From: a phage
Reading direction: 5' to 3' (one strand)
Assembly (NCBI GenBank): GCA_024672275.1
Contig: GCA_024672275.1_4536.1
DNA: 64,000 bases
The notes beneath the pieces are model-generated. The model saw nothing but the letters and a program-made list of their open reading frames with translations, did no database searches and was not told the origin of the DNA. This document shows, one piece after another, positions 1,957-57,181 of this stretch. The translations under genes were made by a program, and so were the position numbers. Position 1 is the stretch's first letter. Every line of letters begins with the position of its first letter.

Positions 1957-2031
1957 GGCCCTGTAGCTCAATGGGAGAGCTGTCGGCTCATAACCGATAG
2001 GTAGCTGGATCGAAACCAGCCAGGGCCACCA
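1957..2031 (+). tRNA. tRNA-Met (anticodon CAT), elongator-type
   Basis: acceptor ggccctg/cagggcc, D-arm gctc..gagc, anticodon loop ctCATaa, T-arm gctgg/ccagc, encoded CCA. Confidence 0.75.
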
Positions 2032-2033
2032 AC

Positions 2034-2108
2034 GTCTTTATGGTGTAATGGATAGCACAGGAGTCTTCTAAACTCTTAGTCAAGGTTCGATTCCTTGTAA
2101 AGACACCA
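2034..2108 (+). tRNA. tRNA-Arg (anticodon TCT)
   Basis: acceptor gtcttta/taaagac, anticodon loop ctTCTaa, T-arm caagg-ttcgatt-ccttg, encoded CCA. Confidence 0.7.
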
Positions 2109-2304
2109 GAACATTTTAACATGAATTAGCTCAAGTGATTTGAACCCACTACTGATCATGGTGGCAGAGAATGAGGCAAGTATGTCAGACATTATAAACA
2201 AAGGCCACGGTTATATTAGAAGACATAAATGCTCGAAGAGCACCGTTCGTTGAGAACGGTGGTTGGTGGAGTCACCATTCATGGTAAAATGTTTTAAAAA
2301 ACTA

Positions 2305-2334
2305 TTGACAACTAACATTATTTTATGTTAGATT
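2305..2334 (+). promoter_or_regulatory. sigma70-like promoter
   Basis: 'actattgaca' -35 at 2305-2310, weak -10 (ttagat/tagatt) 17-18 nt downstream; immediately precedes tRNA-Ser. Confidence 0.4.
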
Positions 2335-2342
2335 ATAAGTAT

Positions 2343-2433
2343 GGAAGGGCAAATCGACGTGGCGACGAAAACGGTCTTGAAAACCGCCGAGCTTGAAAGA
2401 GCCTTGGGAGTTCGACTCTCCCTCCTTCCGCCA
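2343..2433 (+). tRNA. tRNA-Ser (anticodon TGA), type II
   Basis: acceptor ggaaggg/tccttcc, anticodon arm cggtCTTGAAAaccg as in E. coli tRNA-Ser, long variable arm, T-arm gggag-ttcgact-ctccc, CCA. Confidence 0.7.
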
Positions 2434-2437
2434 GATT

Positions 2438-2523
2438 GGTAGATTGGTGAAATGGTAGCCACGACAGTTTGCTAAACTGTAGTCGGAAACGGCGTGTAGG
2501 TTCGAGTCCTACATCTACCGCCA
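2438..2523 (+). tRNA. tRNA-Ser (anticodon GCT), type II
   Basis: acceptor ggtagat/atctacc, anticodon stem acagt/actgt with loop ttGCTaa, long variable arm, T-arm gtagg-ttcgagt-cctac, CCA. Confidence 0.75.
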
Positions 2524-2653
2524 AGTTCTTTTTAATATAGCTTACTTTAATAGAGTAAACTTTCGGCAGATGGCCCCCACCATCTTACCGATACCTCATA
2601 GTTAGTGGTGCGAACACTGGCTATTTTAAAAAGAATTTAAATATTAGTATTTA

Positions 2654-2741
2654 GGTGAGTTAATTCCGTAGGGGTAGCGGGGCAGACTGTAAATCTGTTA
2701 TCATTGCGATTCGGGTGGTTCGACTCCATCACTCACCACCA
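2654..2741 (+). tRNA. tRNA-Tyr (anticodon GTA), type II
   Basis: acceptor ggtgagt/actcacc; anticodon arm gcagaCTGTAAAtctg nearly identical to E. coli tRNA-Tyr; long variable arm; CCA. Confidence 0.8.
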
Positions 2742-2747
2742 AATTAA

Positions 2748-2833
2748 GATGAGTTGGCTGAACGGTTTAAGCGGCGGACTGTTAATCCGTGTTCGAAAGA
2801 ACGATATAGGTTCAAATCCTATACTCATCGCCA
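2748..2833 (+). tRNA. unusual tRNA: Asn anticodon arm (GTT) on a type-II scaffold with long variable-arm hairpin
   Basis: acceptor gatgagt/actcatc (7 bp), 3-bp D-stem, anticodon arm gcggaCTGTTAAtccgt (as in E. coli tRNA-Asn), 15-nt variable arm with gttc-gaaa-gaac hairpin, T-arm atagg-ttcaaat-cctat, CCA. Confidence 0.55.
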
Positions 2834-2840
2834 GAATTAT

Positions 2841-2917
2841 GGACTTGTAGAGTTAAGGTAAACCCCCAGTCGCCAAGAGGCTTCTGGAATTGCAGGTATC
2901 GAATCCTGCCGAGTCCC
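2841..2917 (+). tRNA. tRNA-like element, non-canonical (8-nt T-loop, no clean anticodon arm); possible pseudo-tRNA
   Basis: acceptor-like ggacttg/cgagtcc and T-arm gcagg-tatcgaat-cctgc, but D and anticodon arms do not fold canonically; no encoded CCA. Confidence 0.3.
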
Positions 2918-2923
2918 AGCTTT

Positions 2924-2998
2924 GCTCCTATAGTATAATGGCTATTACAACGGTTTTGTAATCCGTGGATCTCTGTTCGATTCAGAGTGGGAGCACCA
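2924..2998 (+). tRNA. tRNA-Thr (anticodon TGT)
   Basis: acceptor gctccta/tgggagc, anticodon loop ttTGTaa (stem with one U-U mismatch), T-arm ctctg-ttcgatt-cagag, CCA. Confidence 0.6.
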
Positions 2999-3271
2999 AT
3001 ACAACATTAAGGGCACTGTGATTGATCGTCGTATCCTGTGCACAAGGTCTGCTCGAAAGACAGTGTTCTTAGTATTGTGTTGATCACACAAAGAGTTACC
3101 TGAAACTTGACCGGAGTAGGGTTGGATGGGGCAAAAGAAGAAGCGGCTCTCCCATCGACAGCAACGAAGAATAATATTTGACTTTGGTTTTGTATTATTT
3201 TAAGTTAGCTTACCGAACGTAGGGCTAGTCACCCAATGGGATACTCGTCACTGTCCCACTCAATAAAACTA

Positions 3272-3301
3272 TTGACAACCAATAGTAAAATGTAGTATAG
3301 T
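3272..3301 (+). promoter_or_regulatory. sigma70-like promoter
   Basis: 'actattgaca' -35 at 3272-3277, 18-nt spacer, tatagt -10 at 3296-3301; tRNA-Gly starts 12 nt downstream. Confidence 0.55.
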
Positions 3302-3312
3302 AAAGATGTAGG

Positions 3313-3386
3313 GCGTTCTTGGTGTAGCGGTAGCATTCCGTCCTTCCAAGTCGGCGGCACGAGTTCGATCCTCGTAGAACGCTCCA
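3313..3386 (+). tRNA. tRNA-Gly (anticodon TCC)
   Basis: acceptor gcgttct/agaacgc, anticodon loop ctTCCaa, T-arm acgag-ttcgatc-ctcgt, CCA. Confidence 0.8.
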
Positions 3387-3484
3387 AATTATTTAATAAA
3401 GGGTTGCCAGAAAACTTTCTCTTTTACTCATGGTTTTCTCCTTCTCTCACACCTCTTCTGGTTGCCCTTCATTAAATGATTTAT

Positions 3485-3560
3485 TGGTTTGTAGTGTAGT
3501 CCGGTAGCACACGACACTTTGACTGTCGTAGGTTTGGTTCAAATCCAGACAGACCAGCCA
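3485..3560 (+). tRNA. tRNA-Gln (anticodon TTG)
   Basis: acceptor tggtttg/cagacca (U1-A72), D-arm gtgt/acac, anticodon stem cgaca/tgtcg with loop ctTTGac, T-arm tttgg-ttcaaat-ccaga, CCA. Confidence 0.7.
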
Positions 3561-3565
3561 TATAA

Positions 3566-3642
3566 CGGAATTTAGCTCAGTTTGGTAGAGCATACGCTTT
3601 GGGAGCGTAGGGTCGCAGGTTCGAATCCTGCAATTCCGACCA
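3566..3642 (+). tRNA. tRNA-Pro (anticodon TGG)
   Basis: acceptor cggaatt/aattccg, D-arm gctc..gagc, anticodon loop ttTGGga, T-arm gcagg-ttcgaat-cctgc, CCA; close to E. coli tRNA-Pro. Confidence 0.85.
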
Positions 3643-3648
3643 ATCAAA

Positions 3649-3722
3649 TGTTTCGTAGTTCAATGGTAGAACCCACGACTGATAATCGTGAGACACAAGT
3701 TCGATTCTTGTCGAAACAACCA
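3649..3722 (+). tRNA. tRNA-Ile (anticodon GAT)
   Basis: acceptor tgtttcg/cgaaaca, D-arm gttc/gaac, anticodon stem cacga/tcgtg with loop ctGATaa, T-arm acaag-ttcgatt-cttgt, CCA. Confidence 0.8.
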
Positions 3723-3724
3723 GT

Positions 3725-3794
3725 TTCCCGTTAGACTTACAGGATAAGAGTTCCACAACTTATTGTGATGCTGGTTCGAATCCAGCACGGGATA
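3725..3794 (+). tRNA. tRNA-like element with oversized (10-nt) anticodon-region loop; possible pseudo-tRNA or non-canonical tRNA
   Basis: canonical T-arm gctgg-ttcgaat-ccagc and cccg/cggg acceptor pairing; internal stem ataag/cttat encloses agttccacaa; no CCA. Confidence 0.3.
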
Positions 3795-3800
3795 CATAAT

Positions 3801-3879
3801 AGCGGGATAGAGGAGTCTGGTCGTCCTCGCCAGTTTCATATGCTGGAGATCATCGGTTCAAATCCGATTCCCGCCTCCA
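3801..3879 (+). tRNA. tRNA-Met (anticodon CAT), initiator-like
   Basis: anticodon loop ttCATat; T-arm atcgg-ttcaaat-ccgat as in E. coli tRNA-fMet; unpaired A1-C72; CCA encoded. Confidence 0.65.
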
Positions 3880-3994: not shown

Positions 3995-4018
3995 AGCCTC
4001 CTTATTGGAGGCTTTTTG
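3995..4018 (+). terminator. rho-independent terminator closing the tRNA cluster
   Basis: agcctcc-ttatt-ggaggct hairpin followed by TTTTT. Confidence 0.7.
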
Positions 4019-4036
4019 CTATCTATTGAATAAAAC

Positions 4037-4065
4037 TTGACTTATTATTTTTTATATGTTAAGAT
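4037..4065 (+). promoter_or_regulatory. sigma70-like promoter for the late-block operon
   Basis: ttgact 4037-4042, 17-nt AT-rich spacer, taagat; followed by AGGAGG and ATG 4087. Confidence 0.45.
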
Positions 4066-4086
4066 AAAGTTTAGGAGGATTTTATT

Positions 4087-4383
4087 ATGCCTAAACTAAA
4101 ACGTGGTCGTGGAAGACCAACAGCCGAAATGCAACAGATCTACGCAATGGATGCGGCGCAAGCAAGTGTAAAAGAATTATTTGCAGAGCATTATTTAGAA
4201 GCTATGCGATATATTGTTGAACTTGTTAATGATAAGGATGCAGCAAAACCTCTCCGCTTCCAAGCAGCTAAAGCTATTAAAGAGCAAGTAGAAGAATGGT
4301 TAGAAGAACATTATGAAGCTATGGAAGAAGAAACCCCTGCCGTGCAGAATACAGATGACGTTCCTAAAAAGATCGTAATCTAA
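4087..4383 (+). CDS. hypothetical basic/acidic helical protein (98 aa); possibly a small DNA-binding protein (terminase small subunit not excluded)
   Basis: strong RBS AGGAGG; N-terminal KLKRGRGRP basic patch; first gene upstream of spanin/terminase block. Confidence 0.5.
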   Translation: MPKLKRGRGRPTAEMQQIYAMDAAQASVKELFAEHYLEAMRYIVELVNDKDAAKPLRFQAAKAIKEQVEEWLEEHYEAMEEETPAVQNTDDVPKKIVI

Positions 4384-4395
4384 TCCCTCTCCTCT

Positions 4396-4461
4396 CTTGG
4401 GGCTTTGCCCCTCCTCCTTGTTATTTTTAACACCCCTCTCCGAAAGGTTAGGGGCTTTTTT
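4396..4461 (+). terminator. tandem terminator-like hairpins
   Basis: ggggc-tttg-cccc followed by T-rich tract, then imperfect hairpin cccctctcc-gaaa-ggttagggg followed by TTTTTTATTTTT. Confidence 0.5.
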
Positions 4462-4523
4462 ATTTTTAATGCTTGCAATTGTATATCATTTTGTGATAAG
4501 ATCAGATATGAGGAGGATAAAAT

Positions 4524-4694
4524 ATGCGCAATTTTGTAGTTAAAAATGATTTTAACCGTTCTTCTTATCATAAAGATAAAAAGAATGATTACACACGGGT
4601 TTGGAACTTGGAGGAAGAACTTTATGATGACAGAGAAGACTTGGGAAGAGATCCTAGCGGAGGCTCAACCAATGGAAGTGAAGAAGATAGTTAA
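4524..4694 (+). CDS. hypothetical small acidic protein (56 aa)
   Basis: ATG 4524 with AGGAGG 7 nt upstream; below ORF-track length cutoff; competes with overlapping ORF 4546..4761. Confidence 0.4.
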   Translation: MRNFVVKNDFNRSSYHKDKKNDYTRVWNLEEELYDDREDLGRDPSGGSTNGSEEDS

Positions 4695-4744
4695 CAACGC
4701 CCCTTCTCTTCCTAAAATAAAATTTTATGAGGAAGTAGAAGATA

Positions 4745-5137
4745 ATGAATCTAAAGACTAAAACTGTATTAAGTTTTGTTTTAATTGTTGTTCTTATTCT
4801 TGCCGGAATGTTTGCTTATAACAAGATACGTGAGTCTGGCTACAAAGATGGTGTTGCCTATCAAACGCAAGTATATCAAGCAGCCCAAGCAAAAGCAAAA
4901 CAAGATTTCGATGTTCTTCAAAAAAGAGCGGATGAAGAAAGAGCATTATTAAATACTCAAATAAACAACTTGTCTAAAAACAATGCACAATTAAAAGCAG
5001 ATTTAGAGAAGAAGAAACAAACGATCAATGAGGATACAACGAATTATGCAAAAACTAATTCTGGCAGTATGTCTTGCTTTGCCCCTAATGATGACGGGTT
5101 GTTCATCATCAACAAAAGTTTCCCCAGTTCTTATTGA
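4745..5137 (+). CDS. putative i-spanin (Rz-like inner-membrane spanin)
   Basis: N-terminal TM helix (VLSFVLIVVLILAGMFAY) followed by coiled-coil periplasmic domain; contains an overlapping lipoprotein gene in another frame. Confidence 0.55.
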   Translation: MNLKTKTVLSFVLIVVLILAGMFAYNKIRESGYKDGVAYQTQVYQAAQAKAKQDFDVLQKRADEERALLNTQINNLSKNNAQLKADLEKKKQTINEDTTNYAKTNSGSMSCFAPNDDGLFIINKSFPSSY

Positions 5138-5372
5138 TGAGTGTAAGGCTGTAGCCATAGAAAAGGTTAAAGGTCCAGATTCGGACTTGATGGATAAAGT
5201 ATCGACACCTGTGCCATACACTAAAAATCAAATTGCAAAAGGGGTTAGTAGATCTGAAGTTGTTAACAACCAAACTCAAAACAATGCTCTTTGGGAGCAA
5301 GATAGACGAAAGGTTCTAGGTTTACAAACATATATTAAAACACTGCAAGAAAAAGGTATTATTGCTGAATAA
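5046..5372 (+). CDS. putative o-spanin (Rz1-like outer-membrane lipoprotein), overlapped architecture
   Basis: MQKLILAVCLALPLMMTGC: lipoprotein signal with lipobox Cys; starts inside the i-spanin gene in a different frame and extends past it. Confidence 0.5.
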   Translation: MQKLILAVCLALPLMMTGCSSSTKVSPVLIDECKAVAIEKVKGPDSDLMDKVSTPVPYTKNQIAKGVSRSEVVNNQTQNNALWEQDRRKVLGLQTYIKTLQEKGIIAE

Positions 5373-5381
5373 GGAGGGAAT

Positions 5382-7457
5382 GTGGCAAAGAAAAAGGCAG
5401 CAGGTAGTTTAGCTGGAGTAGATATTGAAGTAAAGGCTCAACCAGGTAAACAGACTCTTGCAATGGATTTAATGCCAGAAGTTATGATTTATGGTGGTGC
5501 CGCTGGATGTGTTTCTGCTGAAACAGAATATCTTACAAAAGATGGTTGGAGACAGATTAGTGAATATTCTGGAGAGGATATTTACCAATACAATCCTAAG
5601 AATAAGCGTTTAGAATTGGTAACACCTTATTTTGTAGAATACGATTTAAATGGAGATAACCTATACAGAATAACAAATGGTGTAGGATTGTTCCAAGAAC
5701 TTAGTATGGAACACCGTTTTGTATTCTATAAGAAAAAGAAATCAAAGAAACATTTCGAGATTCTTGTAGGAGATCTTATTGCATTACAGCAAATAGGAAA
5801 ACCCCTGCAAGGTTATGTAGAAAATCCATTCGGTAAACGTGTTCCTTTTAACATACCTGGTAAAAAGAGCACTTACTTAAAAATACACGAGGTTATTTCA
5901 ACAGATGATAAGAAATATTGTTTTGAGACTCCAAGCAGCTATATTGTCTTTAGACGTGGCGATCACTGCTTCGTTACTGGGAATAGCGGCAAGTCTCGTC
6001 TGCTATTGCTGAAAGCTTTAAAATACGCCTACAAAGACCCTTTGTTTGGTGGAATACTTTTCCGTAAGAACACCACTGCTCACCGTAAACCAGGTGGTCT
6101 GTTTACAGAAGCAAAACGTTTGTATCTTCCTTTACAACCGCACGTAAAAGAAAGTACAATGGATATCATTTTTGAAGCCACTGGTGGTGGAACCCTAAAA
6201 TTTGACCATTTGGAAAATGATAACGTAACAGCAGAAACAAACCATCAGGGTACACAGTATTCAATGGTAGGTTTTGACGAGTTAACCCACTTCACACAAT
6301 ATGAAATGCTCTATCTTCTGGGACGTATGCGTTCAGAGTCAGAAACAAGTTTCATGTTGTGCACATGTAACCCTGACGCAGATAGTTGGGTTTTGAATTG
6401 GGTGTTACCTTATCTTGATGAGGGTGGTTATCCTAGAGAAGATATGTGTGGTAAACAAAAATATTTCATCATTGTTAACGATGAACCTGTTTTTGCTGAC
6501 ACACCTGAAGAACTGAAAGAAAAATATCCAGAAAACTGTTTCATGGAAAACCCTAATACAGGGGAGACAGTTGTTATTGAACCACAAACTTTCGTATTTA
6601 TTGGTGGGACAATATTTGATAACCCAGAACTCATTAGGCTTAACCCTAATTACTTAGCACAGCTTAAATCACAAACAGCTATCAAAAGAGCACAGCTTCT
6701 GGATGGTTGTTGGTTTGCACGTATTCAGAAAGAATCTTTCTTTCAACGTGAATGGTTACATAAAATATCTTATAAAGATGTTCCTAACAATCTTAAACTA
6801 ATGCGAGCATGGGATAAAGCTGTTTCAGTTCCTACAGAAACTTACCGTTATCCAGACTATACAACATCTGTCAAAATGGGTAAAGACCAAGATGGTAATA
6901 TCTACATCTTTGGCGACTATGATTATGATGCTGTGGATGAGAAAAGTAAAATTTTTGGAAGGTTTCGAAGACTACCTGGGGAAAGGGATAACCTGATTCT
7001 AAATCAATGTAAGATTGATGGACCAGAAGTTACAGTAGTGCTTCCTAAAGACCCATCTGGTGCTGGGACAATAGAATACACAGAGTCTGCAAAGAAACTT
7101 ATTCTAGAAGGTTTTGTTGTTAAACCAGATGCTATGCCAGGTAACAAGAAAAAGCTTCAGCGTTTTATGCCTTTTAGTAGTGCGTGTCAAAACGGTTTTG
7201 TTTATATTGTTGAAGATTCTTTCCCTAATGTGGAAACTTTAACCCACTTTTATAAAGAATTGGAATCTTTCAATGGTGAAAGATCTACAGCCACTATTAA
7301 AGATGACATTCCCGATGCTGCTGCCTCTTGTTTTAATACTCTGTCAAAAGAGAATACTTTCAAAGCAGTAGCTATCCCTACAACAACAAATGCTCCTACA
7401 GGATACAGTAGAATGAACAGCGGATTTCACCAACCGTATAGTGTCCGTAAAAGATAA
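5382..7457 (+). CDS. terL: terminase large subunit, interrupted by a mini-intein in the Walker A motif
   Basis: GTG start after AAGGAGGG; extein Walker A reconstitutes as GGAAG|SGKS across the intein; Walker B-like VGFDELTH; nuclease-domain acidic motifs (DPSGAG); size and position before portal. Confidence 0.85.
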   Translation: MAKKKAAGSLAGVDIEVKAQPGKQTLAMDLMPEVMIYGGAAGCVSAETEYLTKDGWRQISEYSGEDIYQYNPKNKRLELVTPYFVEYDLNGDNLYRITNGVGLFQELSMEHRFVFYKKKKSKKHFEILVGDLIALQQIGKPLQGYVENPFGKRVPFNIPGKKSTYLKIHEVISTDDKKYCFETPSSYIVFRRGDHCFVTGNSGKSRLLLLKALKYAYKDPLFGGILFRKNTTAHRKPGGLFTEAKRLYLPLQPHVKESTMDIIFEATGGGTLKFDHLENDNVTAETNHQGTQYSMVGFDELTHFTQYEMLYLLGRMRSESETSFMLCTCNPDADSWVLNWVLPYLDEGGYPREDMCGKQKYFIIVNDEPVFADTPEELKEKYPENCFMENPNTGETVVIEPQTFVFIGGTIFDNPELIRLNPNYLAQLKSQTAIKRAQLLDGCWFARIQKESFFQREWLHKISYKDVPNNLKLMRAWDKAVSVPTETYRYPDYTTSVKMGKDQDGNIYIFGDYDYDAVDEKSKIFGRFRRLPGERDNLILNQCKIDGPEVTVVLPKDPSGAGTIEYTESAKKLILEGFVVKPDAMPGNKKKLQRFMPFSSACQNGFVYIVEDSFPNVETLTHFYKELESFNGERSTATIKDDIPDAAASCFNTLSKENTFKAVAIPTTTNAPTGYSRMNSGFHQPYSVRKR
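5508..5984 (+). mobile_element. mini-intein (159 aa, Hint domain only) inserted in terminase P-loop
   Basis: begins Cys (CVSAETEYLTKDG, block A-like), TxxH-like SMEH, ends ...HCFVTGN followed by Ser(+1); excision restores GxxxxGK[ST]. Confidence 0.75.
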
Positions 7458-7460
7458 TTG

Positions 7461-7489
7461 TTGACAAAAGTCACTTTAAAGTGTATTAT
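7461..7489 (+). promoter_or_regulatory. sigma70-like promoter
   Basis: ttgaca 7461-7466, 17-nt spacer, tattat 7484-7489. Confidence 0.55.
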
Positions 7490-7558
7490 AACTAGATAGG
7501 TGAGGTTGTATATAATACAGCCTTGCCTTAACGATTTTATACCTGACTGGAGGAACAA

Positions 7559-9124
7559 GTGTCAACAGGAAAAAGAACGTACACTAAAAAGTCAGAATAC
7601 TGGGACAAAGGTGCTGCAAATAAAGCTGCTCTCTCTCCAACAAAAGAGGCAGAGAAAGAGAAAACGTTACTCCTGTCACCTGAAATAGGAACGATCGGAT
7701 TAAACTCAATCAAAGCATTTACGAATTTCATGCAACCTTATGAGACTCGTTTCCCAGAATGTATTCGCACTTTTAAAGAGATGGGTGAAGACCCTGATGT
7801 AGCTACTGCTCTTGACGCTACATATATCTTTGTAGATAGAGCATTCTTTGATTTCAAGATAAAATACAATGTAAACTCGGCAAAGTCAAGAAAAGCTGCT
7901 AAGTTTATTGATTACATGTTGCGCAATATGCAAGCCCCTCTACGTCAATATGTTAGATCACTTTTGACATATAAGCAATACGGTTTTGCATTCGCAGAGA
8001 AAGTTTATGAGTTGGATGAAGACCCTAAAAGTCCTTACTTTGGGTATTGGCGATTAACCAAACTGGCTTTTAGACCACAAGACACTCTTCACATGGCTCA
8101 ACCTTTTACATATTCGGCAGACGGACGTTCTATTCTATCTGTTAACCAGAATATCACCAATACAATGTTAGCTCCAGGCAATACAACTTTAGAAACTGGT
8201 ATTAAAGAAATTCCTTTCAGTAAAGTTTTATTTGTTGGTAGCAACATTACAGAGAACAACCCACTAGGAGTTAGTCCGCTTTTAGCTGTATATCGTAGCT
8301 GGCGTGAAAAATCTCTTATTCAGGAATTTGAGGTTATTGGGGTATCTAAAGATTTAGGCGGTATGCCAGTTCTTAAGGTTCCAAGTGACATTCTAAACAG
8401 GGCATCTTTAGATCCTGCGGGGGATGAAGCACAATCTCTTCGAGTTCTCCAAGCCAACATCGCTAACCTGCACTCTGGTGAGCAAGCCTACATGGTATTG
8501 CCTTCAGACGTTTATGAAGGCACAGTGATGCGTCAATACGATCTTGTATTCCAAGGTGTTGATGGCACGGGTAAACAGTTTGACACTCAAGCACTAATCA
8601 AACAACGCAAGCTAGATATTTATAACCGCTTTGGTGCGGGTGTGTTGATTATGGGTGATGGTGATGCAGGAAGTTTTGCGCTTTCTGACAACAAACAAAC
8701 ACTATTGTCTCATTTTATTGAGCGAGATGTAGATATTGTTGTAGAAGCTATAAACTCTCAACTGATCCCTCAAACACTACGACTAAACAATATCTTCCTT
8801 TCTGATGAAGATATGCCTAAGTTTGTCAGTGGTGAAATGGGTGATCCTGATATTGAAGTAAATGCTAAAGCTATTCAGCAGTTGGTAGCCTCTGGTGCAA
8901 TACCTTTAACCCCAGAAGTTATTAACGAGTTCCTTGAAAAAATTGGTTTTGAATATCGCATCCCTGACGATATTGTTGCCAATAAAGAGAAATTCTTTGA
9001 ATTCATGGATAACTATATGCCTGACAAAACTTCACGATCAGGAGATGGTTTAGCTACAGCGGGAACTGGAACATCTGATACTGTTTCTGCTTTAGATCCT
9101 TCAGCACAAAACCTGTCGAATTAA
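7559..9124 (+). CDS. putative portal protein
   Basis: 521 aa; GTG start with GGAGGA RBS; position immediately after terminase large subunit in a lambda-like head module. Confidence 0.55.
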   Translation: MSTGKRTYTKKSEYWDKGAANKAALSPTKEAEKEKTLLLSPEIGTIGLNSIKAFTNFMQPYETRFPECIRTFKEMGEDPDVATALDATYIFVDRAFFDFKIKYNVNSAKSRKAAKFIDYMLRNMQAPLRQYVRSLLTYKQYGFAFAEKVYELDEDPKSPYFGYWRLTKLAFRPQDTLHMAQPFTYSADGRSILSVNQNITNTMLAPGNTTLETGIKEIPFSKVLFVGSNITENNPLGVSPLLAVYRSWREKSLIQEFEVIGVSKDLGGMPVLKVPSDILNRASLDPAGDEAQSLRVLQANIANLHSGEQAYMVLPSDVYEGTVMRQYDLVFQGVDGTGKQFDTQALIKQRKLDIYNRFGAGVLIMGDGDAGSFALSDNKQTLLSHFIERDVDIVVEAINSQLIPQTLRLNNIFLSDEDMPKFVSGEMGDPDIEVNAKAIQQLVASGAIPLTPEVINEFLEKIGFEYRIPDDIVANKEKFFEFMDNYMPDKTSRSGDGLATAGTGTSDTVSALDPSAQNLSN

Positions 9125-11254: not shown

Positions 11255-12256
11255 ATGCCAGCAGTAATTTTAGATCAGGTTGTAGATTTCAGCCCTATGA
11301 TCGAACTTCAGGATTCCCCTGATACACTGATTGCCAGCCTGAATCTGTTCAGTGTTGACTATCATTCAACTACCGCTATTGAAATCGGTAAAGAAAAAGC
11401 TGAAGATGCTCTGATCTCCGCTCGTGAGCGTGGTGGTGAGCGTAACTTCCTGAGCATGAAAAATCCAGAACTGAAAGCGTTCCGCATTCCGTTCTTCCCT
11501 CTGGATAAAAACATCAAAGCTCAAGATATTCAATCTTTCCGTAGCTTTGCAATGGCAGGAATCAATGACTCTCTGCGCACAGACGCTGAAGTTGTTAACC
11601 GCTATATGTCCCAGATTCTGCGTGACGTAGCAAAAACCAAAGAGAAAATCTTTGCAGAAGCAGTTATGGGTCGTGCCTATAACGGCGTAGGTGGTGCAGC
11701 TAACTCTGCATACAACTGGTATACCGAATGGGGTGCTACCCAGAAATCTGTTGCTGTAGACTTTGCTTCTACCACTGTTTCTCCAGCAGCCACTATCGAG
11801 AAAGAAGCTCGTGCTTACATCATCGATACTAAACAAGATGGCTCTACCGCTACTCGTATCGTAGCTCTGTGTTCTCGTGAATTTTTCGCATCTCTGGTTA
11901 ACTCTCCATTTGTTCGCCAGGCATATCAGTATTTCCAGGGAACTCCTAACCTTCTGCGTGACCGCCTTAGCGGTAACATGGATGTTCAGGTGTTCGAATG
12001 GAACGGTGTAACTTACATTGAAGATATCCACGGTAACATCCCTGCTGGTGAAGCATATGTTCTGCCTATGGGTATCGAAGGTATGTTCCAGGCGCACTAC
12101 GCTCCTGCGGATACCCCAGAACTGGCTAACACCCAGGCTCGTGAACTGTATACCTTCATGATCAGCCAGCACCGCACTATTCAGCTTCAGTCTGAATTCT
12201 CGCTGCTCGCAGTTAACACCCGTCCAGAACTGGTAGTTAAACTGACTACGGCTTAA
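11255..12256 (+). CDS. major capsid protein, lambda gpE-like
   Basis: 333 aa (lambda gpE is 341 aa); C-terminal NTQARELYTF resembles lambda gpE NTQARGLRTYG; strong RBS, biased codon usage; terminator follows. Confidence 0.75.
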   Translation: MPAVILDQVVDFSPMIELQDSPDTLIASLNLFSVDYHSTTAIEIGKEKAEDALISARERGGERNFLSMKNPELKAFRIPFFPLDKNIKAQDIQSFRSFAMAGINDSLRTDAEVVNRYMSQILRDVAKTKEKIFAEAVMGRAYNGVGGAANSAYNWYTEWGATQKSVAVDFASTTVSPAATIEKEARAYIIDTKQDGSTATRIVALCSREFFASLVNSPFVRQAYQYFQGTPNLLRDRLSGNMDVQVFEWNGVTYIEDIHGNIPAGEAYVLPMGIEGMFQAHYAPADTPELANTQARELYTFMISQHRTIQLQSEFSLLAVNTRPELVVKLTTA

Positions 12257-12277
12257 TAGAACTCTGTTAAGATTAGA

Positions 12278-12306
12278 GGCTCGTCCGTGATGGGCGAGCC
12301 TTTTCT
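12278..12306 (+). terminator. rho-independent terminator after capsid gene
   Basis: 9-bp stem ggctcgtcc/gggcgagcc, loop gtgat, followed by TTTTCT. Confidence 0.7.
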
Positions 12307-12340
12307 GTTTACAATAAGAGTTTACAACGAGGAGATTGAT

Positions 12341-12685
12341 ATGTCAAACCCAGAATTGAAACGTTACTTTAGTTATCACGAAATGATTCGTGATTTCGAA
12401 TCGCTTTCACCACTGATCGATGCTGATAAAACATTAGTATCTGCGCCACCAATGTCTTTCTATCTGAAAGATGGTCGTATTGCATTAGGTGGAAACTTCA
12501 TTCACTTCCTCACACGTTTGAGAGAAGAAACAGGTATTCTTGTGCATCCTTTTGCAAGTGAAGAACACATGGGTTACTATCTTGTAAGTTACGAAGACTA
12601 TGCACCTGTAAAAATCAAAGAAGAAGTTTTAAAAGTAGAAGCGGTAGACACTCCAGCTAAAAAACGTTCCCTTCGTAAAAAATAA
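12341..12685 (+). CDS. hypothetical head-tail connector region protein (114 aa)
   Basis: ATG 12341 with GAGGAG upstream; ORF-track start 12287 lies inside the terminator hairpin so the internal start is preferred. Confidence 0.5.
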   Translation: MSNPELKRYFSYHEMIRDFESLSPLIDADKTLVSAPPMSFYLKDGRIALGGNFIHFLTRLREETGILVHPFASEEHMGYYLVSYEDYAPVKIKEEVLKVEAVDTPAKKRSLRKK

Positions 12686-26550: not shown

Positions 26551-28704
26551 ATGAAACAAGCTATATTTACTGTCACGCGAGACAAGAGAGTAAATGCGAG
26601 TTCATTTAACTACACGACTGTTGACGGAACAGCAGTCGCTGGTAGAGATTATATTGCAAAATCGGGAACACTTGTGTTCCCTGATGATGCTGATTCTGCT
26701 ACTATTGTGGTTGAAGTATTTGAACGACCAAAGAACTCAATAGATCTTAACTTCTCCCTCCAAGTTTCAGGGATTAGTCAAAATAACATGATGGTTGAAA
26801 CAACCATCAATTGTATTATAACTACTATCCAAGAAAATACTACTCCAATAACTTGGACTACAAAAGACGTTAAAATGTTCTCTCCTATGTATTGGACAAT
26901 AGATTCTCAAGCAACGGAAAGTTGTTCTATTGTATCTCATGGAGACTCTTTTACTGCAAGATTTGTAAACAGAACAACAGCAGGTTTGGCAGGGGTTATC
27001 TGGAGCACAGTTGACAAATATGACCATAAAGGTGTTGGGTATTTGCCTCACACAGATTTAAGTTCAGAGAAACTTTGGTTTAAAATGGAAATTAGTCAAA
27101 ACATGCCAGGTTTTAAAGAAGAACCTTTGGTGCCGACTTTGACTGTAACTCTCCTGGATAAAAGTGTTCATTATGTCAGTTTAGGATTCTACGCTTCAGA
27201 TATTTCAGAAGATGGTAAAACAGCCACAATAAAGTTAGATTTTAGTAATATCTTTTCTGGCCCTAATAATGATATTCCTTTGGATATGAGTGCTGTAGAT
27301 AATATTTTCTTCTCTTTGATTACAGCAAGGTATGAAAAAATAGAAGAGGTTGTACCTATTGACAGTCAAGAGGCTTGGTTTACTTTCACTCTTCTTGAAC
27401 CTACTTCTGGTTACAGTATGATGAAAGTCAGCAACCTTGTCCAGCCTGAACATGATATTCGCATGTGCACATCTTATGATGATATGTATAACCTGACTCC
27501 AGAGAGAGTTATTTATAATACATATGCACTAGGTTATCGTGGAATGATTAACCATTACAACGGAATGTCTCACTATTATGAGTTCTCATGGAACGGAACA
27601 TCTTGGGCTTTAAATAGATCTGTTTTCCTGAATCCGGCTACAGAAGCTTGGCTTAACAGTTTCCATTCTATAGCTAATGAAAATGGCTACACAATAATGA
27701 ACTCTTTGAGTTTTGAGTTGATGAGCACAGTTTGTCCTGTTGAATGGGTCCAGCATGATTGGAACGATGCTCTTGCAGCAACAGGGTATAAGCCTCCTAG
27801 TTACGTGTTGTCTCCAACTATTGACGAAGGCATGGAATATTTGCAAAATGTTATTAACAAAATAGCATCTATTTCTCAAGCTAATAACATTCCAGTCGTC
27901 ATTCAAATTGGTGAACCTTGGTGGTGGTATAATACAGCAAGTAAAATGCCTTGCATATACGATTACACTACCAAACTGGCATTCAACACAGAAACTGGCT
28001 TATTTGCACAAGATGCAGGAACAATAGATAATTATAAAACAGGAACGCCGTTTGACGAATACTATGCATTTTTGTCTCGTAAACTGGGGTTAAGAGTTAC
28101 AAAGTTTGCAACAGACACCAGAGCAACTTATCCTGGAGCTAAAGTAACATTGCTTCCGTTCTTACCGTCAATTATTGGCAACGGTTTGATGGAGAAAGTT
28201 AACTTTCCGTCTGATTACTACATTCCTGAAGCTTTTGATTTTTACTGTTCAGAGTGTTATGACTGGCTTCTGGAAGGTAAGATGATGAAAGCATTTGATG
28301 CAATTACCATACCACATGAAAAATTAGGTTTTGAATATTCTGATATTCACTATCTTTCAGGTTTTGTTCCAGATGCTACTCTTGCGCCTTTGTATGGCTT
28401 CGATCCTGAATCAAACTACCGCACGTATCTTTGGAAAATGATTATAGGTAATATAGTGTTGAACGCCAACAAGTTTAACGGACTTACACAATATATATGG
28501 GCCTATCCTCAAATAATGCACGATTCCATTACGGTAGTTAACTCTCAATCCCAAGTTTTCTATATGGGTAATGTGCCTTTGAATTGCTATTTGCAAGATA
28601 TCACTCTTAAACAAGCAAATGTTGAGATTGCTACCATAAGTGGAATTACATTAGCTACTAAATCTGGAGAAGATTTAGTAACAACACAAAAATTTTATAT
28701 ATAG
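26551..28704 (+). CDS. structural protein with N-terminal Calx-beta-like domain
   Basis: 717 aa; N-terminus TTVDGTAVAGRDYIAKSGTLVFPDDADSATIVVEV fits the Calx-beta motif. Confidence 0.4.
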   Translation: MKQAIFTVTRDKRVNASSFNYTTVDGTAVAGRDYIAKSGTLVFPDDADSATIVVEVFERPKNSIDLNFSLQVSGISQNNMMVETTINCIITTIQENTTPITWTTKDVKMFSPMYWTIDSQATESCSIVSHGDSFTARFVNRTTAGLAGVIWSTVDKYDHKGVGYLPHTDLSSEKLWFKMEISQNMPGFKEEPLVPTLTVTLLDKSVHYVSLGFYASDISEDGKTATIKLDFSNIFSGPNNDIPLDMSAVDNIFFSLITARYEKIEEVVPIDSQEAWFTFTLLEPTSGYSMMKVSNLVQPEHDIRMCTSYDDMYNLTPERVIYNTYALGYRGMINHYNGMSHYYEFSWNGTSWALNRSVFLNPATEAWLNSFHSIANENGYTIMNSLSFELMSTVCPVEWVQHDWNDALAATGYKPPSYVLSPTIDEGMEYLQNVINKIASISQANNIPVVIQIGEPWWWYNTASKMPCIYDYTTKLAFNTETGLFAQDAGTIDNYKTGTPFDEYYAFLSRKLGLRVTKFATDTRATYPGAKVTLLPFLPSIIGNGLMEKVNFPSDYYIPEAFDFYCSECYDWLLEGKMMKAFDAITIPHEKLGFEYSDIHYLSGFVPDATLAPLYGFDPESNYRTYLWKMIIGNIVLNANKFNGLTQYIWAYPQIMHDSITVVNSQSQVFYMGNVPLNCYLQDITLKQANVEIATISGITLATKSGEDLVTTQKFYI

Positions 28705-28712
28705 GAGTAAAA

Positions 28713-30017
28713 ATGTCAACTACAATTACTAATTTACCAGAAACATCAAAAGTTAATGGTTCTGATTACCTGGTTTTAGACCAATCTGATAAGACTGTTA
28801 AAAGCACAGTTTCCAACTTTCTTACTGACACTGGGGTGGTTTTAGCCACCCAGTTGAAAGATACAGATGGAGCAGATTTAATACAATCCTCAAATGGTAA
28901 TACTGTTCAGGAAGAGTTGAATAACAATCTTCTTAATAATCGTGAACAGTGGCGTCGTAGTCTTGCTGAGGCAGGGTTAACCCTTGTCAACGGTAGCTTT
29001 GAAGAAGGGGCTACAGTAAACAATAAGACGGATGCTGTTTGGCATATTGCTGGTGGGCAGTGCTATACGTGGGATGGTGCTTTCCCTAAAGCTGTTCCCT
29101 CTGACTCAACCACTACATCAACCGGTGGTGTTGGAACAGGTGCATGGGTTAGTGTTGGTGATGCATCTTTGCGTACTGATTTATCTTCATCTGATGGTGC
29201 TGGGCTTATTGGTGTTAGCTCTGGAGGGACAGTACAAGGCTCCCTCTCCGACATTAAGAACTTAATTAAGCACGCGCAGCCGCTTTCTGACAGACGCATC
29301 GTAGCTATTGCTCACCGTGGATATTCAGAGACGTATTTAGAGCAAACACTGATGGCTTACAGTCAATGTAATGCTGATGTATTAGAAGTCGATATGCAAA
29401 CTACATCAGATGGGTATGCTGTGTGCTTCCATGACAATGACTTGTCCCCTGCTACCGTAGGAGGTTCTGGGGCGGTAAAAGATAACACATACTCCACCGT
29501 TTCCGCATTACGTTTTACAAGAGCCGTCGGTACAAGATACGCAGACATGGCGGGCATACCGACATTGGGGTCAGTCTGCCGGATTGCTATGCGACGCGGT
29601 AAAATGCTTCACGCAGAAATAAAAGGCTACAGAACGTTAGAAGATTGCGCTCTTTACTCGAGCATAGTCAACCAATACGGCTTGAGTCCATACACCACAT
29701 TTTCATGCTTCGACTTCGCTCCGTTGGCATACACCCACAACATAAATCCGCGTATTACCTACGCACTAGAGTTAAACTCTTACGATAGTAGCATGGACGC
29801 TAACATAGCAGAGCTTGCGTCCTGGGGCGGGTCTGTGTTGTCTATAAACAAAAACATATTGAGCACTATAGGCAATAAGAAGCTTCGCGAGTGGGAGGCT
29901 ATGGGGCTTACTTTGGCCGCATGGACGATATACACGGCAGAACAAATGCAGACCGTTGCCAATTACGGCATACGTCTTGTATATCTGGATAAAGATTTTT
30001 ACAACATTATAGGTTAA
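28713..30017 (+). CDS. tail fibre-like protein with C-terminal glycerophosphodiester phosphodiesterase (GDPD) domain
   Basis: 434 aa; N-terminal fibre-like region then HRGYSETYLEQT ... LEVDMQTTSDGYAVCFHDNDL (HRG / E-x-D...T-x-DG...HD GDPD signature). Confidence 0.55.
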   Translation: MSTTITNLPETSKVNGSDYLVLDQSDKTVKSTVSNFLTDTGVVLATQLKDTDGADLIQSSNGNTVQEELNNNLLNNREQWRRSLAEAGLTLVNGSFEEGATVNNKTDAVWHIAGGQCYTWDGAFPKAVPSDSTTTSTGGVGTGAWVSVGDASLRTDLSSSDGAGLIGVSSGGTVQGSLSDIKNLIKHAQPLSDRRIVAIAHRGYSETYLEQTLMAYSQCNADVLEVDMQTTSDGYAVCFHDNDLSPATVGGSGAVKDNTYSTVSALRFTRAVGTRYADMAGIPTLGSVCRIAMRRGKMLHAEIKGYRTLEDCALYSSIVNQYGLSPYTTFSCFDFAPLAYTHNINPRITYALELNSYDSSMDANIAELASWGGSVLSINKNILSTIGNKKLREWEAMGLTLAAWTIYTAEQMQTVANYGIRLVYLDKDFYNIIG

Positions 30018-30022
30018 CTGAT

Positions 30023-30790
30023 ATGAAGCAAATTATTAACTCCCGCAATTTCTCACACTGGGACTTTTTAAACACTGGTTCTGGTACAACGATGGTTGTG
30101 CCGGATGGTAGGTTACGTATGCAAAACCCTGATGACTCAAGCAGAGCAATGGTGATTCGCGATATCATGCTAATGCCTGGGGATACTGTGACCATCTATG
30201 GTATTGGAAGGACAACGTCGTTATCATCAGGCGCATTTATAATGGGGGTGGAGTACCCTGTTGGCAAACGCCTCGCTCAAGCTAACTTTATCCATAACGA
30301 AGACAGCTTACTTCTTAAATGTTCATGGAAATGTCCGGTAGACGCCGAACCGTGCACTGTTAGGCTTGCTTGCGGTCTTCCGAAATCAACAACAGCCATT
30401 GCGTATATGACAGACTTATGGATCGAGATTGACTCTGAAAACTTGAGTAGTCGACGCATCTTAATGGACGGTGTTCTTGAGATAAACGCTGGTGTGGCAT
30501 CTATATCAACGGCATATGACCGTTGTAACGTAGGATCAATTAACGCGTCCAGCGTCAACGTTGACATTAGCCCAGCCGTCTTCACCGCAGGAGACCGTAG
30601 GCCTTTGGCGTTTGTCCAGCCGATTTTTAACACTAAAGAAACGTACTCATCCGGAGTTTTAATTCCTGTCGCTGACTTCACTAAGGCTGGGGTTCTAAAC
30701 ATTAGACTTCAAAACCCAGCTACAGGGAATCTCGTAGGTGTTACTGGAGCCAGTATTTACAAAACAATAGCTTTCACTGTATATATTTGA
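30023..30790 (+). CDS. hypothetical tail-associated protein
   Basis: 255 aa ORF following the GDPD fibre gene. Confidence 0.4.
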   Translation: MKQIINSRNFSHWDFLNTGSGTTMVVPDGRLRMQNPDDSSRAMVIRDIMLMPGDTVTIYGIGRTTSLSSGAFIMGVEYPVGKRLAQANFIHNEDSLLLKCSWKCPVDAEPCTVRLACGLPKSTTAIAYMTDLWIEIDSENLSSRRILMDGVLEINAGVASISTAYDRCNVGSINASSVNVDISPAVFTAGDRRPLAFVQPIFNTKETYSSGVLIPVADFTKAGVLNIRLQNPATGNLVGVTGASIYKTIAFTVYI

Positions 30791-30802
30791 TTGCAATACA
30801 CT

Positions 30803-30822
30803 AAAACCCCGCCGAAGCTGGG
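30803..30822 (-). terminator. terminator hairpin (minus-strand orientation; may act bidirectionally)
   Basis: minus-strand cccagc-ttcg-gcgggg hairpin followed by TTTT; same gcttcggcgggg core as terminator at 19569. Confidence 0.5.
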
Positions 30823-30834
30823 TTAGTTCTATCA

Positions 30835-30864
30835 TCAGAACGGAATATCGTCGTCGAAATCCAT
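30835..30864 (-). CDS. 9-codon micro-ORF encoding MDFDDDIPF (the SSB C-terminal tip peptide); near-duplicate of the ssb 3' end
   Basis: ATG 30864..30862, stop TGA 30837..30835; AAGGAGG at 30884..30878; 30835-30872 matches 44042-44079 at 34 of 38 nt. Confidence 0.25.
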   Translation of the reverse strand: MDFDDDIPF

Positions 30865-31029
30865 CGGAGGCTCATTACCTCCTTGTGGGCTTTATTGTTT
30901 GGGTGGCAGTTGCTGTTTATCAACCAAACCAACGCTGCGGTAGGTAGGGGGTTTTTGTTGTACCCCCTAACAAATTATTAGGTAGACTGTTTTAGTCAAT
31001 TACGACTTAACTAACCTGAGAAAGTCCCT

Positions 31030-31320
31030 ATGGGAAATGAACCAGATAACGTAACTCTAGCCAGACTCGAGGAGAGACTGAGAAACATTTTCGAAAACCA
31101 AACCCGTGAATCAAGGGAAAGGGAGAAAATGGAAGAGTCTATTAAAAAACTAAGTGAGTCTATGGGCGACCTTAGTAACCGACTTAAACGGGTAGAGGAG
31201 AGCATCACTAAGTCTGAGCCTACTATTGAAGAGTTCATCACCATTAAACATAAAGTTGCTGGTGCTGGAATTTTTGGCAAGTTGGCATGGGCTGTAGCAG
31301 GTGCAAATGGGCTTCATTAA
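31030..31320 (+). CDS. hypothetical coiled-coil protein with hydrophobic C-terminus
   Basis: 96 aa; charged coiled-coil then GAGIFGKLAWAVAGANGLH. Confidence 0.35.
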   Translation: MGNEPDNVTLARLEERLRNIFENQTRESREREKMEESIKKLSESMGDLSNRLKRVEESITKSEPTIEEFITIKHKVAGAGIFGKLAWAVAGANGLH

Positions 31321-31497
31321 GGTTCACACAAGCTATGTCCTGCAAGCGCATGTCATCGCCATGTGATAAAATGATGAAAACATATCGTAGCAGGGTTAAT
31401 CTTGTCTTTAGTTACTATCGTACTAACTCAAAGTGTTGTCACTACCACTGCAAGCCCCTCCAAAGAGGGGCTTACTTAGAAAAACAAAGAGGTTGTT

Positions 31498-31806
31498 ATG
31501 AACGAAATGTTCTCCCAAGGTGGTAAAGGTTCAACCGGAATCTTAACCAATAAACAAGCAGTAGCCCGTCACTTTGGAGTTAAACAATCTGAGGTTGTTT
31601 ACTTCTCAATTGGTGTGGATTTGGGTGGGTATAAGGTTATCTATGACAAGGAGACGCAAAGGGCGTATTCCCTACCTGCTGATATTGCCCCAGGTACTAC
31701 TGCCATTAGTCTTAGTGCTGCTGTACTTGTGCATTCAGCGGGTTCTGTAGACCTTGGGGAATTAGCTATATCTTGTGATTTAAAAAGTAATGAGAACGCA
31801 CTATGA
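31498..31806 (+). CDS. hypothetical protein (102 aa)
   Basis: ATG with AGAGG RBS; coupled to downstream membrane protein. Confidence 0.45.
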   Translation: MNEMFSQGGKGSTGILTNKQAVARHFGVKQSEVVYFSIGVDLGGYKVIYDKETQRAYSLPADIAPGTTAISLSAAVLVHSAGSVDLGELAISCDLKSNENAL

Positions 31807-32045
31807 GAAAATTTTTAATAGGTATGTTCTGTACATATCCCGATAATAAAGTCAGTTCTACGAAAGTCTGGAACGCTGTAGGCATGTCGGTTATGACAGG
31901 CATGTTTATCTTTTTAGGAATAGAAAAAGAAATTCCTGAATGGATGGGTTGGGCTTTTGTTTTCATGATAACCCCTTCTCGCCTCATGAAAAATCTTATT
32001 GATTTACGTTGGGGCAGATCACAATCTACTAAAGAGGATGACTAA
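31803..32045 (+). CDS. small two-TM membrane protein, holin-like
   Basis: 80 aa; two hydrophobic helices and charged C-terminal tail (RWGRSQSTKEDD); ATGA overlap with both neighbours. Confidence 0.4.
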   Translation: MRKFLIGMFCTYPDNKVSSTKVWNAVGMSVMTGMFIFLGIEKEIPEWMGWAFVFMITPSRLMKNLIDLRWGRSQSTKEDD

Positions 32046-35790: not shown

Positions 35791-36126
35791 ATGGAATTTC
35801 AAGAAGCATGGGGACTTGCAAAGGATGCAATAATCCCTTTAATCGGAGTCATCTGGTTCTTTTTCAAACAAAAAATGGATAAATTCGGCTCTGATCTTGA
35901 GGAAATGGAGGAGAAAAGTCGAGAGCTAGAGAAGAAGTTGGTCTTTGTTGAATCAACTTATGCAACTAAAGCCGAACTTACCCAGATGCTAAATCAAATT
36001 AACTCTACATTAATGGCAAATAATAACACCCTTGAGCAAAAAATTGAAAAGATTATGGACCTCAAGAATGCGACTATCCAAATGATGCTAGATGACATAG
36101 TTAAACGTACACAGAATAAGGGGTAA
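35791..36126 (+). CDS. hypothetical membrane/coiled-coil protein
   Basis: 111 aa; N-terminal hydrophobic helix (IIPLIGVIWFFF) then coiled coil. Confidence 0.4.
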   Translation: MEFQEAWGLAKDAIIPLIGVIWFFFKQKMDKFGSDLEEMEEKSRELEKKLVFVESTYATKAELTQMLNQINSTLMANNNTLEQKIEKIMDLKNATIQMMLDDIVKRTQNKG

Positions 36127-56688: not shown

Positions 56689-56896
56689 TTACAACCTCCT
56701 TAATAGCTACTGCACAGTTCTTACAAATACATTGACCTTTGTTCTTAGAAATTTCAATGTAAGGTTCATTTTCGTTTTCTCCGCGTCGTGAGTCGTATAT
56801 TACTGTATTGAAGCAGACAACGCAAATGTTTTTAATAACGACATATTTTTGCACTTTCTGTTTAGTGCGAAAATTGACTTCAATGACTTCTCCCAT
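56666..56896 (-). CDS. small zinc-ribbon protein (76 aa)
   Basis: ATG 56896 with GGGGAG RBS; CVVCF ... CICKNC. Confidence 0.45.
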   Translation of the reverse strand: MGEVIEVNFRTKQKVQKYVVIKNICVVCFNTVIYDSRRGENENEPYIEISKNKGQCICKNCAVAIKEVVNENAWDQ

Positions 56897-57180: not shown

Positions 57181-57181
57181 T

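Follow-up and report, generated by a model that had tools for sequence, protein, structure and literature searches.

An overlapped spanin gene pair ahead of the terminase gene, and very probably T4-like scattered lysis genes, in a Phapecoctavirus myophage of Escherichia coli

Two overlapping plus-strand genes, at 4745..5137 and 5046..5372, encode the predicted inner-membrane (i-spanin) and outer-membrane (o-spanin) subunits of a two-component spanin directly ahead of the gene for the large terminase subunit (TerL). The window in which they lie, the whole 64,000-nucleotide stretch of DNA analyzed here, is by sequence comparison part of the genome of a virulent E. coli myophage of the genus Phapecoctavirus (phAPEC8-like, Stephanstirmvirinae), being ~99.5% identical to many GenBank genomes of phAPEC8-like phages. 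A megablast search with window positions 4000..8000 matched 133 records, with query coverage of at least 80% in 63 phage genomes; 31 records are at 99% identity or more and 34 at 95–99%, nearly all of them Escherichia phages of this genus. The window aligns at ~98% identity along coordinates ~33966..97851 of the 148,445-bp complete genome OR437326.1 (phage iGC_PHA_EC001), save for one exchanged tailspike segment (window 29128..31549); it therefore represents 64 kb out of a virulent myophage genome of ~150 kb. These phages are widely used therapeutic phages.

The i-spanin gene (4745..5137, +) starts at an ATG and encodes a protein of 130 amino acids. Signal and transmembrane (TM) segments were called with our own hydropathy calculation (Kyte-Doolittle 19-mer, KD19) and regular-expression heuristics. 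Near the N-terminus of the protein is a strongly hydrophobic segment, spanning residues ~2–28 with a KD19 maximum of 2.6, which is flanked on its N-terminal side by K4/K6; no other such segment is present, an arrangement that corresponds to type II topology. A single-sequence AlphaFold (AF2) model places residues 3–104 in one continuous helix (pLDDT ~90 overall and ~86–97 for residues 11–100) and leaves the last 26 residues disordered, while matches to coiled-coil families in Pfam are weak and below threshold. The PHROG profile HMM phrog_4297, ‘Rz-like spanin’, matches the protein with an E-value of 3.4e-35, and its counterparts in GenBank relatives are annotated under the same name. Toward the C-terminus lies a conserved motif, YAKT..G.MSCF.PNDDGL, which holds the single cysteine of the protein (C111), a residue conserved across the Stephanstirmvirinae.

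The o-spanin gene (5046..5372, +) is translated in frame +1, the i-spanin gene being frame 0, and encodes a precursor of 108 amino acids. Its N-terminus, MQKLILAVCLALPLMM-TG↓C-SS, has the short basic n-region, hydrophobic core and lipobox cysteine of a signal peptidase II (SPase II) substrate; the lipobox M-T-G-C is encoded at 5091..5102 (+), and the Cys codon at 5100..5102 marks the predicted site of lipidation and cleavage. A 19-aa lipoprotein signal is predicted, with a mature protein of 89 aa beginning at the lipidated Cys. Sorting to the outer membrane is expected given that the residue at +2 is Ser instead of Asp. The mature N-terminus is CSS in the window and CAS, CTS, CNS, CTS and CAT in homologues, rV5 included, and Asp at +2 is absent from every homologue compared. 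The protein matches phrog_1267, also an ‘Rz-like spanin’ family, with an E-value of 8.7e-21. In an alignment of six sequences including rV5, G18 and C19 are invariant, and the C-terminal motif NN..DR.K..LQ.Y is invariant as far as rV5, at 25% identity. The single-sequence AF2 model of this protein is of low confidence (mean pLDDT 61), and only its C-terminal helix was used.

The start of the o-spanin gene required attention. The full open reading frame runs from the ATG at 5028 (5028..5372, +; 114 aa). The codon equivalent to window 5046 (MQKL...) is used in all four of the divergent relatives compared, which do not retain the ATG at 5028, and a GAGGA sequence at 5030..5034 lies 11 nt upstream of the ATG at 5046. 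Conservation points to 5046, and not 5028, as the true start. The CDS in most GenBank records begins instead at the equivalent of window 5088 (MMTGC...), 42 nt late, with loss of the signal peptide. Annotation of the gene as ‘o-spanin’ is present in ESCO5, EmilieFrey and PaulScherrer. The same kind of o-spanin annotation error was documented by Kongari et al., who counted 64 wrong starts and 196 missing CDSs.

Measured from the ATG at 5046, the two genes overlap by 92 nt (5046..5137, +), as against 110 nt from 5028. This dual-coding segment specifies the C-terminus of the i-spanin in frame 0 and the signal peptide and first residues of the o-spanin in frame +1. The o-spanin frame then runs 235 nt past the end of the i-spanin gene (stop at 5372, compared with 5137), so that the pair, adjacent as expected of a two-component spanin, belongs to the overlapped class and not to the embedded, lambda-type arrangement.

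Both frames are under evident conservation. A tblastn search recovered the o-spanin frame as one aligned piece, over 80% or more of the query length, in every matching phage record (136 of 136). Phages phiWec190, VEcB, KP2025 and KP13-16, whose o-spanins are 73, 66, 66 and 37% identical to that of the window, all keep the overlap, both frames, the Gly-Cys of the lipobox and the Cys-containing i-spanin motif. With the PHROG family assignments, the retention of the frame in every record and its persistence in divergent relatives, the spanin pair is, as judged from these comparisons, far beyond what chance would produce. The opposing view, that the +1 frame is a chance open frame, that the 130-aa protein alone is real and that the phage either has no o-spanin or employs a different outer-membrane disruptor, can draw on the many GenBank records in which the o-spanin is labelled ‘hypothetical protein’ or called in truncated form, but it is effectively refuted by conservation and has a negligible probability, considering the family HMM match, the intact frame in all 136 records and the lipobox G-C and C-terminal motif that stay invariant down to rV5. 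Three elements of a previous sequence-only reading of the window are upheld by these data: an overlapped spanin pair upstream of the terminase, an i-spanin with a TM helix followed by a predicted long helix (its coiled-coil nature being reflected only in weak Pfam matches), and a lipoprotein gene with a lipobox Cys that lies in another frame and extends beyond the i-spanin gene.

The TerL gene (5382..7457, +) has a GTG start and was identified by a match to Pfam Terminase_6N (5e-17) and by the annotation of relatives. It begins 9 nt after the o-spanin stop, which puts the spanins at the head of the block of late structural and packaging genes. Only one weak terminator-like stem-loop was found between 4745 and 5382, on the opposite strand (5299..5285). 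From this spacing, the pair abutting the TerL gene with a single weak opposite-strand stem-loop in the region, we infer that the spanins are probably expressed late, together with the packaging and structural genes. A σ70-like site just upstream of the i-spanin gene (4691..4718) was dropped as evidence, since promoter-like sites show no enrichment relative to shuffled controls (14 compared with 10.6 ± 3.2).

The spanin pair itself is already known: its family has been catalogued, and the phage genus is well sampled. The o-spanin shows 100% identity to its phAPEC8 counterpart, and both subunits match exactly the phAPEC8 proteins given in PMC6139136. The family, as represented by phi92 and phAPEC8, appears in both spanin tables of the census of Kongari et al. 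(2018), and the GenBank records of several relatives annotate the pair as Rz-like spanin, i-spanin or o-spanin. The phAPEC8/phi92 genes have the same overlapped layout and the same place before TerL, and nothing of substance differs. In the literature searched we found no experimental study of this spanin family.

Comparison with other phages places the pair in a wider context. The spanin genes of CB7, rV5 and PVP-SE1 (Vequintavirinae) adjoin the large terminase gene and are not part of a cassette (PMC7344957); published accounts place the lysin and a candidate holin of these phages elsewhere, and the rV5 paper describes its lysin and putative holin as lying apart ‘as in phage T4’. The order of the rV5 locus, a tRNA cluster, a small ORF, the i-spanin, the o-spanin and TerL, is the same as that found here. 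The spanins of rV5 and the window are 21–25% identical, with pairwise E-values of 3e-4 and 3e-5, a weak but detectable homology in both subunits, and share the motifs Y..G...L..I.N.S and NN..DR.K..LQ.YI.TL. In rV5, however, the genes are ‘separated’, with a 4-nt ATGA overlap compared with 92 nt here, and the i-spanin lacks the Cys that is present in the window protein. Lambda Rz/Rz1 shares the functional class and the topology of the pair: a type II protein of the inner membrane, with a helical periplasmic domain, works with an outer-membrane lipoprotein encoded in the +1 frame. Unlike Rz1, which is wholly embedded in Rz within the S-R-Rz cassette, the window o-spanin continues beyond the i-spanin gene; the pair is not beside a holin or endolysin gene, and in PHROG it matches best to separate ‘Rz-like’ families. 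The mature o-spanin, with four Pro and a helical C-terminus, is also longer and less proline-rich than Rz1. Phage T4 (e, t, pseT.3/pseT.2) is likewise a large virulent myophage with a soluble T4-type lysozyme and scattered lysis loci, although its spanin genes are separated, in contrast with the overlapped genes here, and are of another family by sequence.

What removes the peptidoglycan before the spanins act is most probably encoded outside the window. Record OR437326.1 contains a gene for a 166-aa T4-type lysozyme at 12161..12661(-), between phoH and thioredoxin/nucleotide-sugar genes. It lies upstream of the spanins at a distance of 26.0 kb, ~21 kb to the left of the point where the window begins. 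The protein aligns end to end with T4 lysozyme chains (~1e-48), keeps the T4 catalytic residues E11/D20/T26 as E15/D24/T30, and has neither a signal nor a TM segment. The gene is found at 95% identity or more in 65 records, the same number as carry the spanin region at that level, and this co-occurrence in 65 of 65 close relatives makes it probable that the lysozyme is also encoded in the window’s own genome. Some records label the 166-aa protein ‘Baseplate hub + tail lysozyme’, a name that we rejected in view of its T4 gpe size, its end-to-end alignment and its location in a nucleotide-metabolism block. A cytoplasmic lysozyme without a signal implies a holin-dependent pathway. The genes beside it in OR437326.1 encode no hydrophobic segment, as the BME3 authors likewise noted for the lysozyme neighbors in their phage. 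No T4-lysozyme-like sequence was found in the 64-kb window, and a Pfam scan of the tape measure protein and nine baseplate and tail proteins revealed no muralytic domain.

The only recognizable peptidoglycan hydrolase inside the window is a SleB-like cell-wall hydrolase encoded at 57182..57703 on the minus strand, with a Pfam Hydrolase_2 match of 1.5e-17, recognizable homologues and a signal-like N-terminus. That N-terminus (MLIKNFVTVALLSLTAFTFTPVVAKA↓E) comprises K4, a hydrophobic core at residues 5–24 and a sequence, AKA↓E, that fits the −3/−1 rule, and the protein is on these features probably exported via Sec. Comparison with the SleB structures 4f55 and 4fet in the PDB shows that the Glu of the YxExRG motif is kept: E57 aligns with the Glu of YGESRGE, which we take to be the catalytic residue. 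The hydrophobic N-terminus and E57 are present in all five aligned homologues, drawn from Justusliebigvirus, the Klebsiella Stephanstirmvirinae phage FBKp34, Vequintavirus and T5-like phages. The homologues are spread over 1099 phage records, T5-like and PAK_P1-like phages among them. Neighbors of the gene have roles in replication or are glycosyltransferase and tellurite-resistance-like genes, and it is encoded on the strand opposite the late genes.

The sequence-only reading had described this protein as a SleB-like hydrolase with a signal peptide, and had called it the only hydrolase candidate. The latter statement stands within the 64-kb window and fails for the genome, given the T4-type lysozyme of all 65 close relatives; a 64-kb slice of a 150-kb genome offers no basis for claims about ‘the only lysin’. 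The dispersal of the lysis genes, which the same reading had proposed, is borne out: the genes do not form a contiguous holin-endolysin-spanin cassette, and in OR437326.1 the lysozyme and SleB-like genes lie 26.0 and 51.9 kb, respectively, from the spanins.

A further proposal was that the SleB-like hydrolase is the endolysin, exported by Sec and requiring no release through a holin, with the spanins completing lysis. It is the only enzyme with a peptidoglycan hydrolase domain detected inside the window, its signal-like N-terminus and putative catalytic Glu are maintained in every homologue aligned, and several records call it ‘endolysin’; moreover, its CB7 homologue is reported to carry a signal peptide and to be toxic on expression in E. 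coli, and the CR3 homologue to have been implicated in lysis (PMC7344957). The T4-type lysozyme of 65 of 65 close relatives, which lacks a signal and has its catalytic triad intact, weighs against this model, as does the location of the SleB-like gene, apart from the late genes and on the opposite strand. The T5-like homologues possess the same signal-like N-terminus but are annotated only as cell wall hydrolases, and T5 lyses its host with a different endolysin, an L-alanoyl-D-glutamate peptidase. In addition, an unregulated secreted muralytic enzyme would cause premature lysis unless kept inactive, and we see no sign of such control. We consider this model very unlikely, and the claim of a Sec-exported lysin acting without holin release is not supported. 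The wide co-occurrence of SleB-like homologues with other canonical endolysins makes it more likely that the enzyme has an accessory role than that it is the sole lysin.

A model in which both enzymes degrade the wall, the T4-type lysozyme after release by a holin and the SleB-like enzyme after secretion, fares better. The SleB-like protein might then serve as a periplasmic primer or fail-safe, activated for example when the holin collapses the membrane potential, in the manner of SAR or Sec-dependent endolysins. The universal presence of both genes in Phapecoctavirus and rV5-like phages favors such a division of labor, as do the toxicity of the CB7 homologue (PMC7344957) and the papers on BME3 and iGC_PHA_EC001, which describe ‘two endolysins’ or ‘two lytic proteins’. 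The hydrophobic segment, however, ends in an AXA-type cleavage motif, unlike the Gly/Ala-rich anchor of a SAR protein, so that membrane tethering followed by release is not obviously available, and the position of the gene suggests earlier expression. The literature searched yielded no experimental support for either enzyme in this phage group. We regard joint action of the two hydrolases as unlikely, if still of appreciable weight, and favor the reading in which the lysozyme is the main hydrolase and the SleB-like protein an accessory enzyme.

The favored reading calls for a holin, and here the candidates are several. The gene at 31803..32045 (+) encodes a small membrane protein of 80 aa, a putative holin candidate that is assigned to phrog_1322 (‘membrane protein’, 1.8e-27) but to no Pfam family. 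It lies immediately upstream of a Baseplate_J gene, its stop and the next start sharing base 32045, and 372 rV5-like phage records retain it, in every case within the tail-fibre/baseplate module. Holin genes in such a setting have a precedent in T4, where the holin gene t lies beside the tail-fibre gene 38. On the crude hydropathy scale used, residues 22–40 pass the threshold (KD19 of at least 1.6), while a second stretch at ~46–58 is short and falls below it; the C-terminus (...SRLMKNLIDLRWGRSQSTKEDD) is charged and basic, like the tail of a class II holin. The BME3 authors considered the homologue a topology II holin candidate, and BME3 is the only record to call it ‘membrane protein-holin’, the name in REC and ESCO9 being ‘structural protein’. 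The protein has no homology to any named holin, and its gene is separated from the spanins by 26 kb and from the lysozyme by ~53 kb. Thus the holin-like gene that the sequence-only reading had placed in the tail module exists at that position, but its identity as a holin is unproven.

Holins proposed in related phages did not provide a better candidate. A search of the window and OR437326.1 with rV5 ORF129 (78 aa, with two clean TM domains) gave nothing better than an E-value of ~1, and the TM protein beside the rV5 lysin (ORF90) gave only a 33-residue fragment (E=0.004), which was not convincing; the 80-aa protein is thus distinct from the published candidate ORF129, whose gene is located elsewhere in rV5. 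A holin of the CB7 type, encoded by a gene for a protein with two TM domains that overlaps the downstream end of the SleB-like gene (PMC7344957), was also rejected, as the corresponding downstream ORF (56896..57243) has no Pfam match and no convincing TM domain. Neither a T-type holin nor an RI antiholin was recognized here. Scanning of OR437326.1 revealed at least six further small proteins with two TM domains (27281..27463, 99534..99755, 115047..115223, 116265..116429, 126593..126799 and 144370..144579 among them), and with this many candidates no single holin can be named. A more specific scheme, in which the conserved SleB-like protein of rV5-like, phAPEC8-like and T5-like phages is a second, Sec-delivered lysis effector or a periplasmic pre-lysis wall remodeller alongside the lysozyme and the 80-aa protein is the holin of the whole supergroup, appears to us distinctly unlikely.

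Taken together, the data very probably describe a two-gene spanin in a phage with scattered, T4-like lysis genes, in which the T4-type lysozyme is the main hydrolase and the SleB-like enzyme is accessory. The spanin function is assigned from topology, homology-family labels and analogy. The i-spanin would be anchored in the inner membrane by its N-terminal helix and extend as a long helical rod into the periplasm, and the o-spanin would be a small outer-membrane lipoprotein. By analogy with lambda Rz/Rz1 and T4 PseT.3/PseT.2, the two subunits may interact via their C-terminal regions and so span the periplasm. Once the peptidoglycan mesh is removed, most likely by the cytoplasmic lysozyme encoded ~26 kb away and released by a putative holin, the complex would destroy the outer membrane, fusion with the inner membrane being the probable mechanism. 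The gene anatomy, topology signals, family membership, conservation and synteny, and the presence of the lysozyme in relatives, come directly from the sequences; complex formation, membrane fusion, the timing of expression and the choice of lysing enzyme are the parts of this account that we infer.

Earlier work on this phage supergroup has already described the spanin pair, its position next to the terminase gene, the absence of a cassette, both hydrolases and holin candidates at distant loci. The value of the present analysis lies in annotation: most Phapecoctavirus records need an earlier o-spanin start to regain the lipoprotein signal.

The o-spanin gene of the window (5046..5372, +) is misrepresented in many Phapecoctavirus GenBank records, where it is labelled "hypothetical protein"; in most records of the genus, its coding sequence is begun at MMTGC (window position 5088), and the lipoprotein signal is lost as a result. 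The annotated coding sequences at 2589..2873 in three of these records (L001-L003) all have this start, while the start at window position 5046 is kept across divergent relatives. The spanin and terminase genes are preceded by a cluster of 10 tRNA genes (1957..3879; Met, Arg, Ser, Asn, Thr, Gly, Gln, Pro, Ile and Met), and after this cluster comes a hairpin (3995..4013) that strongly resembles a terminator.

Downstream, the large terminase, TerL (5382..7457), appears to carry a mini-intein of about 155 aa at roughly residues 43-200, inserted in the Walker A P-loop (GGAAG-SGKS). The protein reads ...YGGAAG up to the putative insert, which begins CVSAETEYLTKDGW and ends DHCFVTGN, after which the terminase resumes with SGKSRLLLL. 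The Pfam Terminase_6N match takes in nothing before residue 202, which aligns to position 8 of the profile. In rV5, by contrast, TerL is interrupted both by introns and by an HNH endonuclease.

The T4-type lysozyme is encoded outside the window (12161..12661 in the complete relative OR437326.1). Its best PDB match is 7rgr, "Artificial protein L056", and the two sequences agree at every position through roughly residue 71; this designed or generated lysozyme was therefore evidently derived in part from the sequence of this phage's family. Within the window, the SleB-like gene (57182..57703, −) is immediately preceded upstream by a gene for a TerD-domain protein (57803..58405, −; Pfam 3e-28), and a tellurite-resistance (TelA-like) gene belongs to the same block, which extends to about 62416. 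In Klebsiella phage FBKp34, a TelA-domain gene is directly followed by the SleB-like gene.

In the tail-fibre module, the 111-aa product of 35791..36126 (+), encoded after the tail-fibre assembly gene, is annotated as a "lipoprotein" in OR437326.1. The protein lacks both a Cys and a lipobox; near its N-terminus a hydrophobic stretch (approximately residues 9-27) precedes a coiled-coil-like region, and the predicted topology is i-spanin-like. One segment of the window, 29128..31549, finds no counterpart in the alignment with OR437326.1, which is elsewhere 98% identical; it holds the end of a tailspike gene together with ORFs 30023..30790 and 31030..31320, and its failure to align suggests that a receptor-binding-protein cassette has been swapped. 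ORF 31498..31806 has PHROG matches to many tailspikes, in the N-terminal anchor domain only.

The spanin pair of the window (4745..5372) differs in architecture from that of rV5 (5873..6555). The former, in Stephanstirmvirinae, consists of overlapped genes (92-nt overlap), whereas the latter, in Vequintavirinae, consists of separated genes with a 4-nt overlap; the two occupy the same locus and share weak homology. Kongari et al. assigned the spanin groups of these subfamilies to different families. Judged by locus and sequence, the two pairs may represent a further case of transition between separated and overlapped spanin genes inside one lineage.
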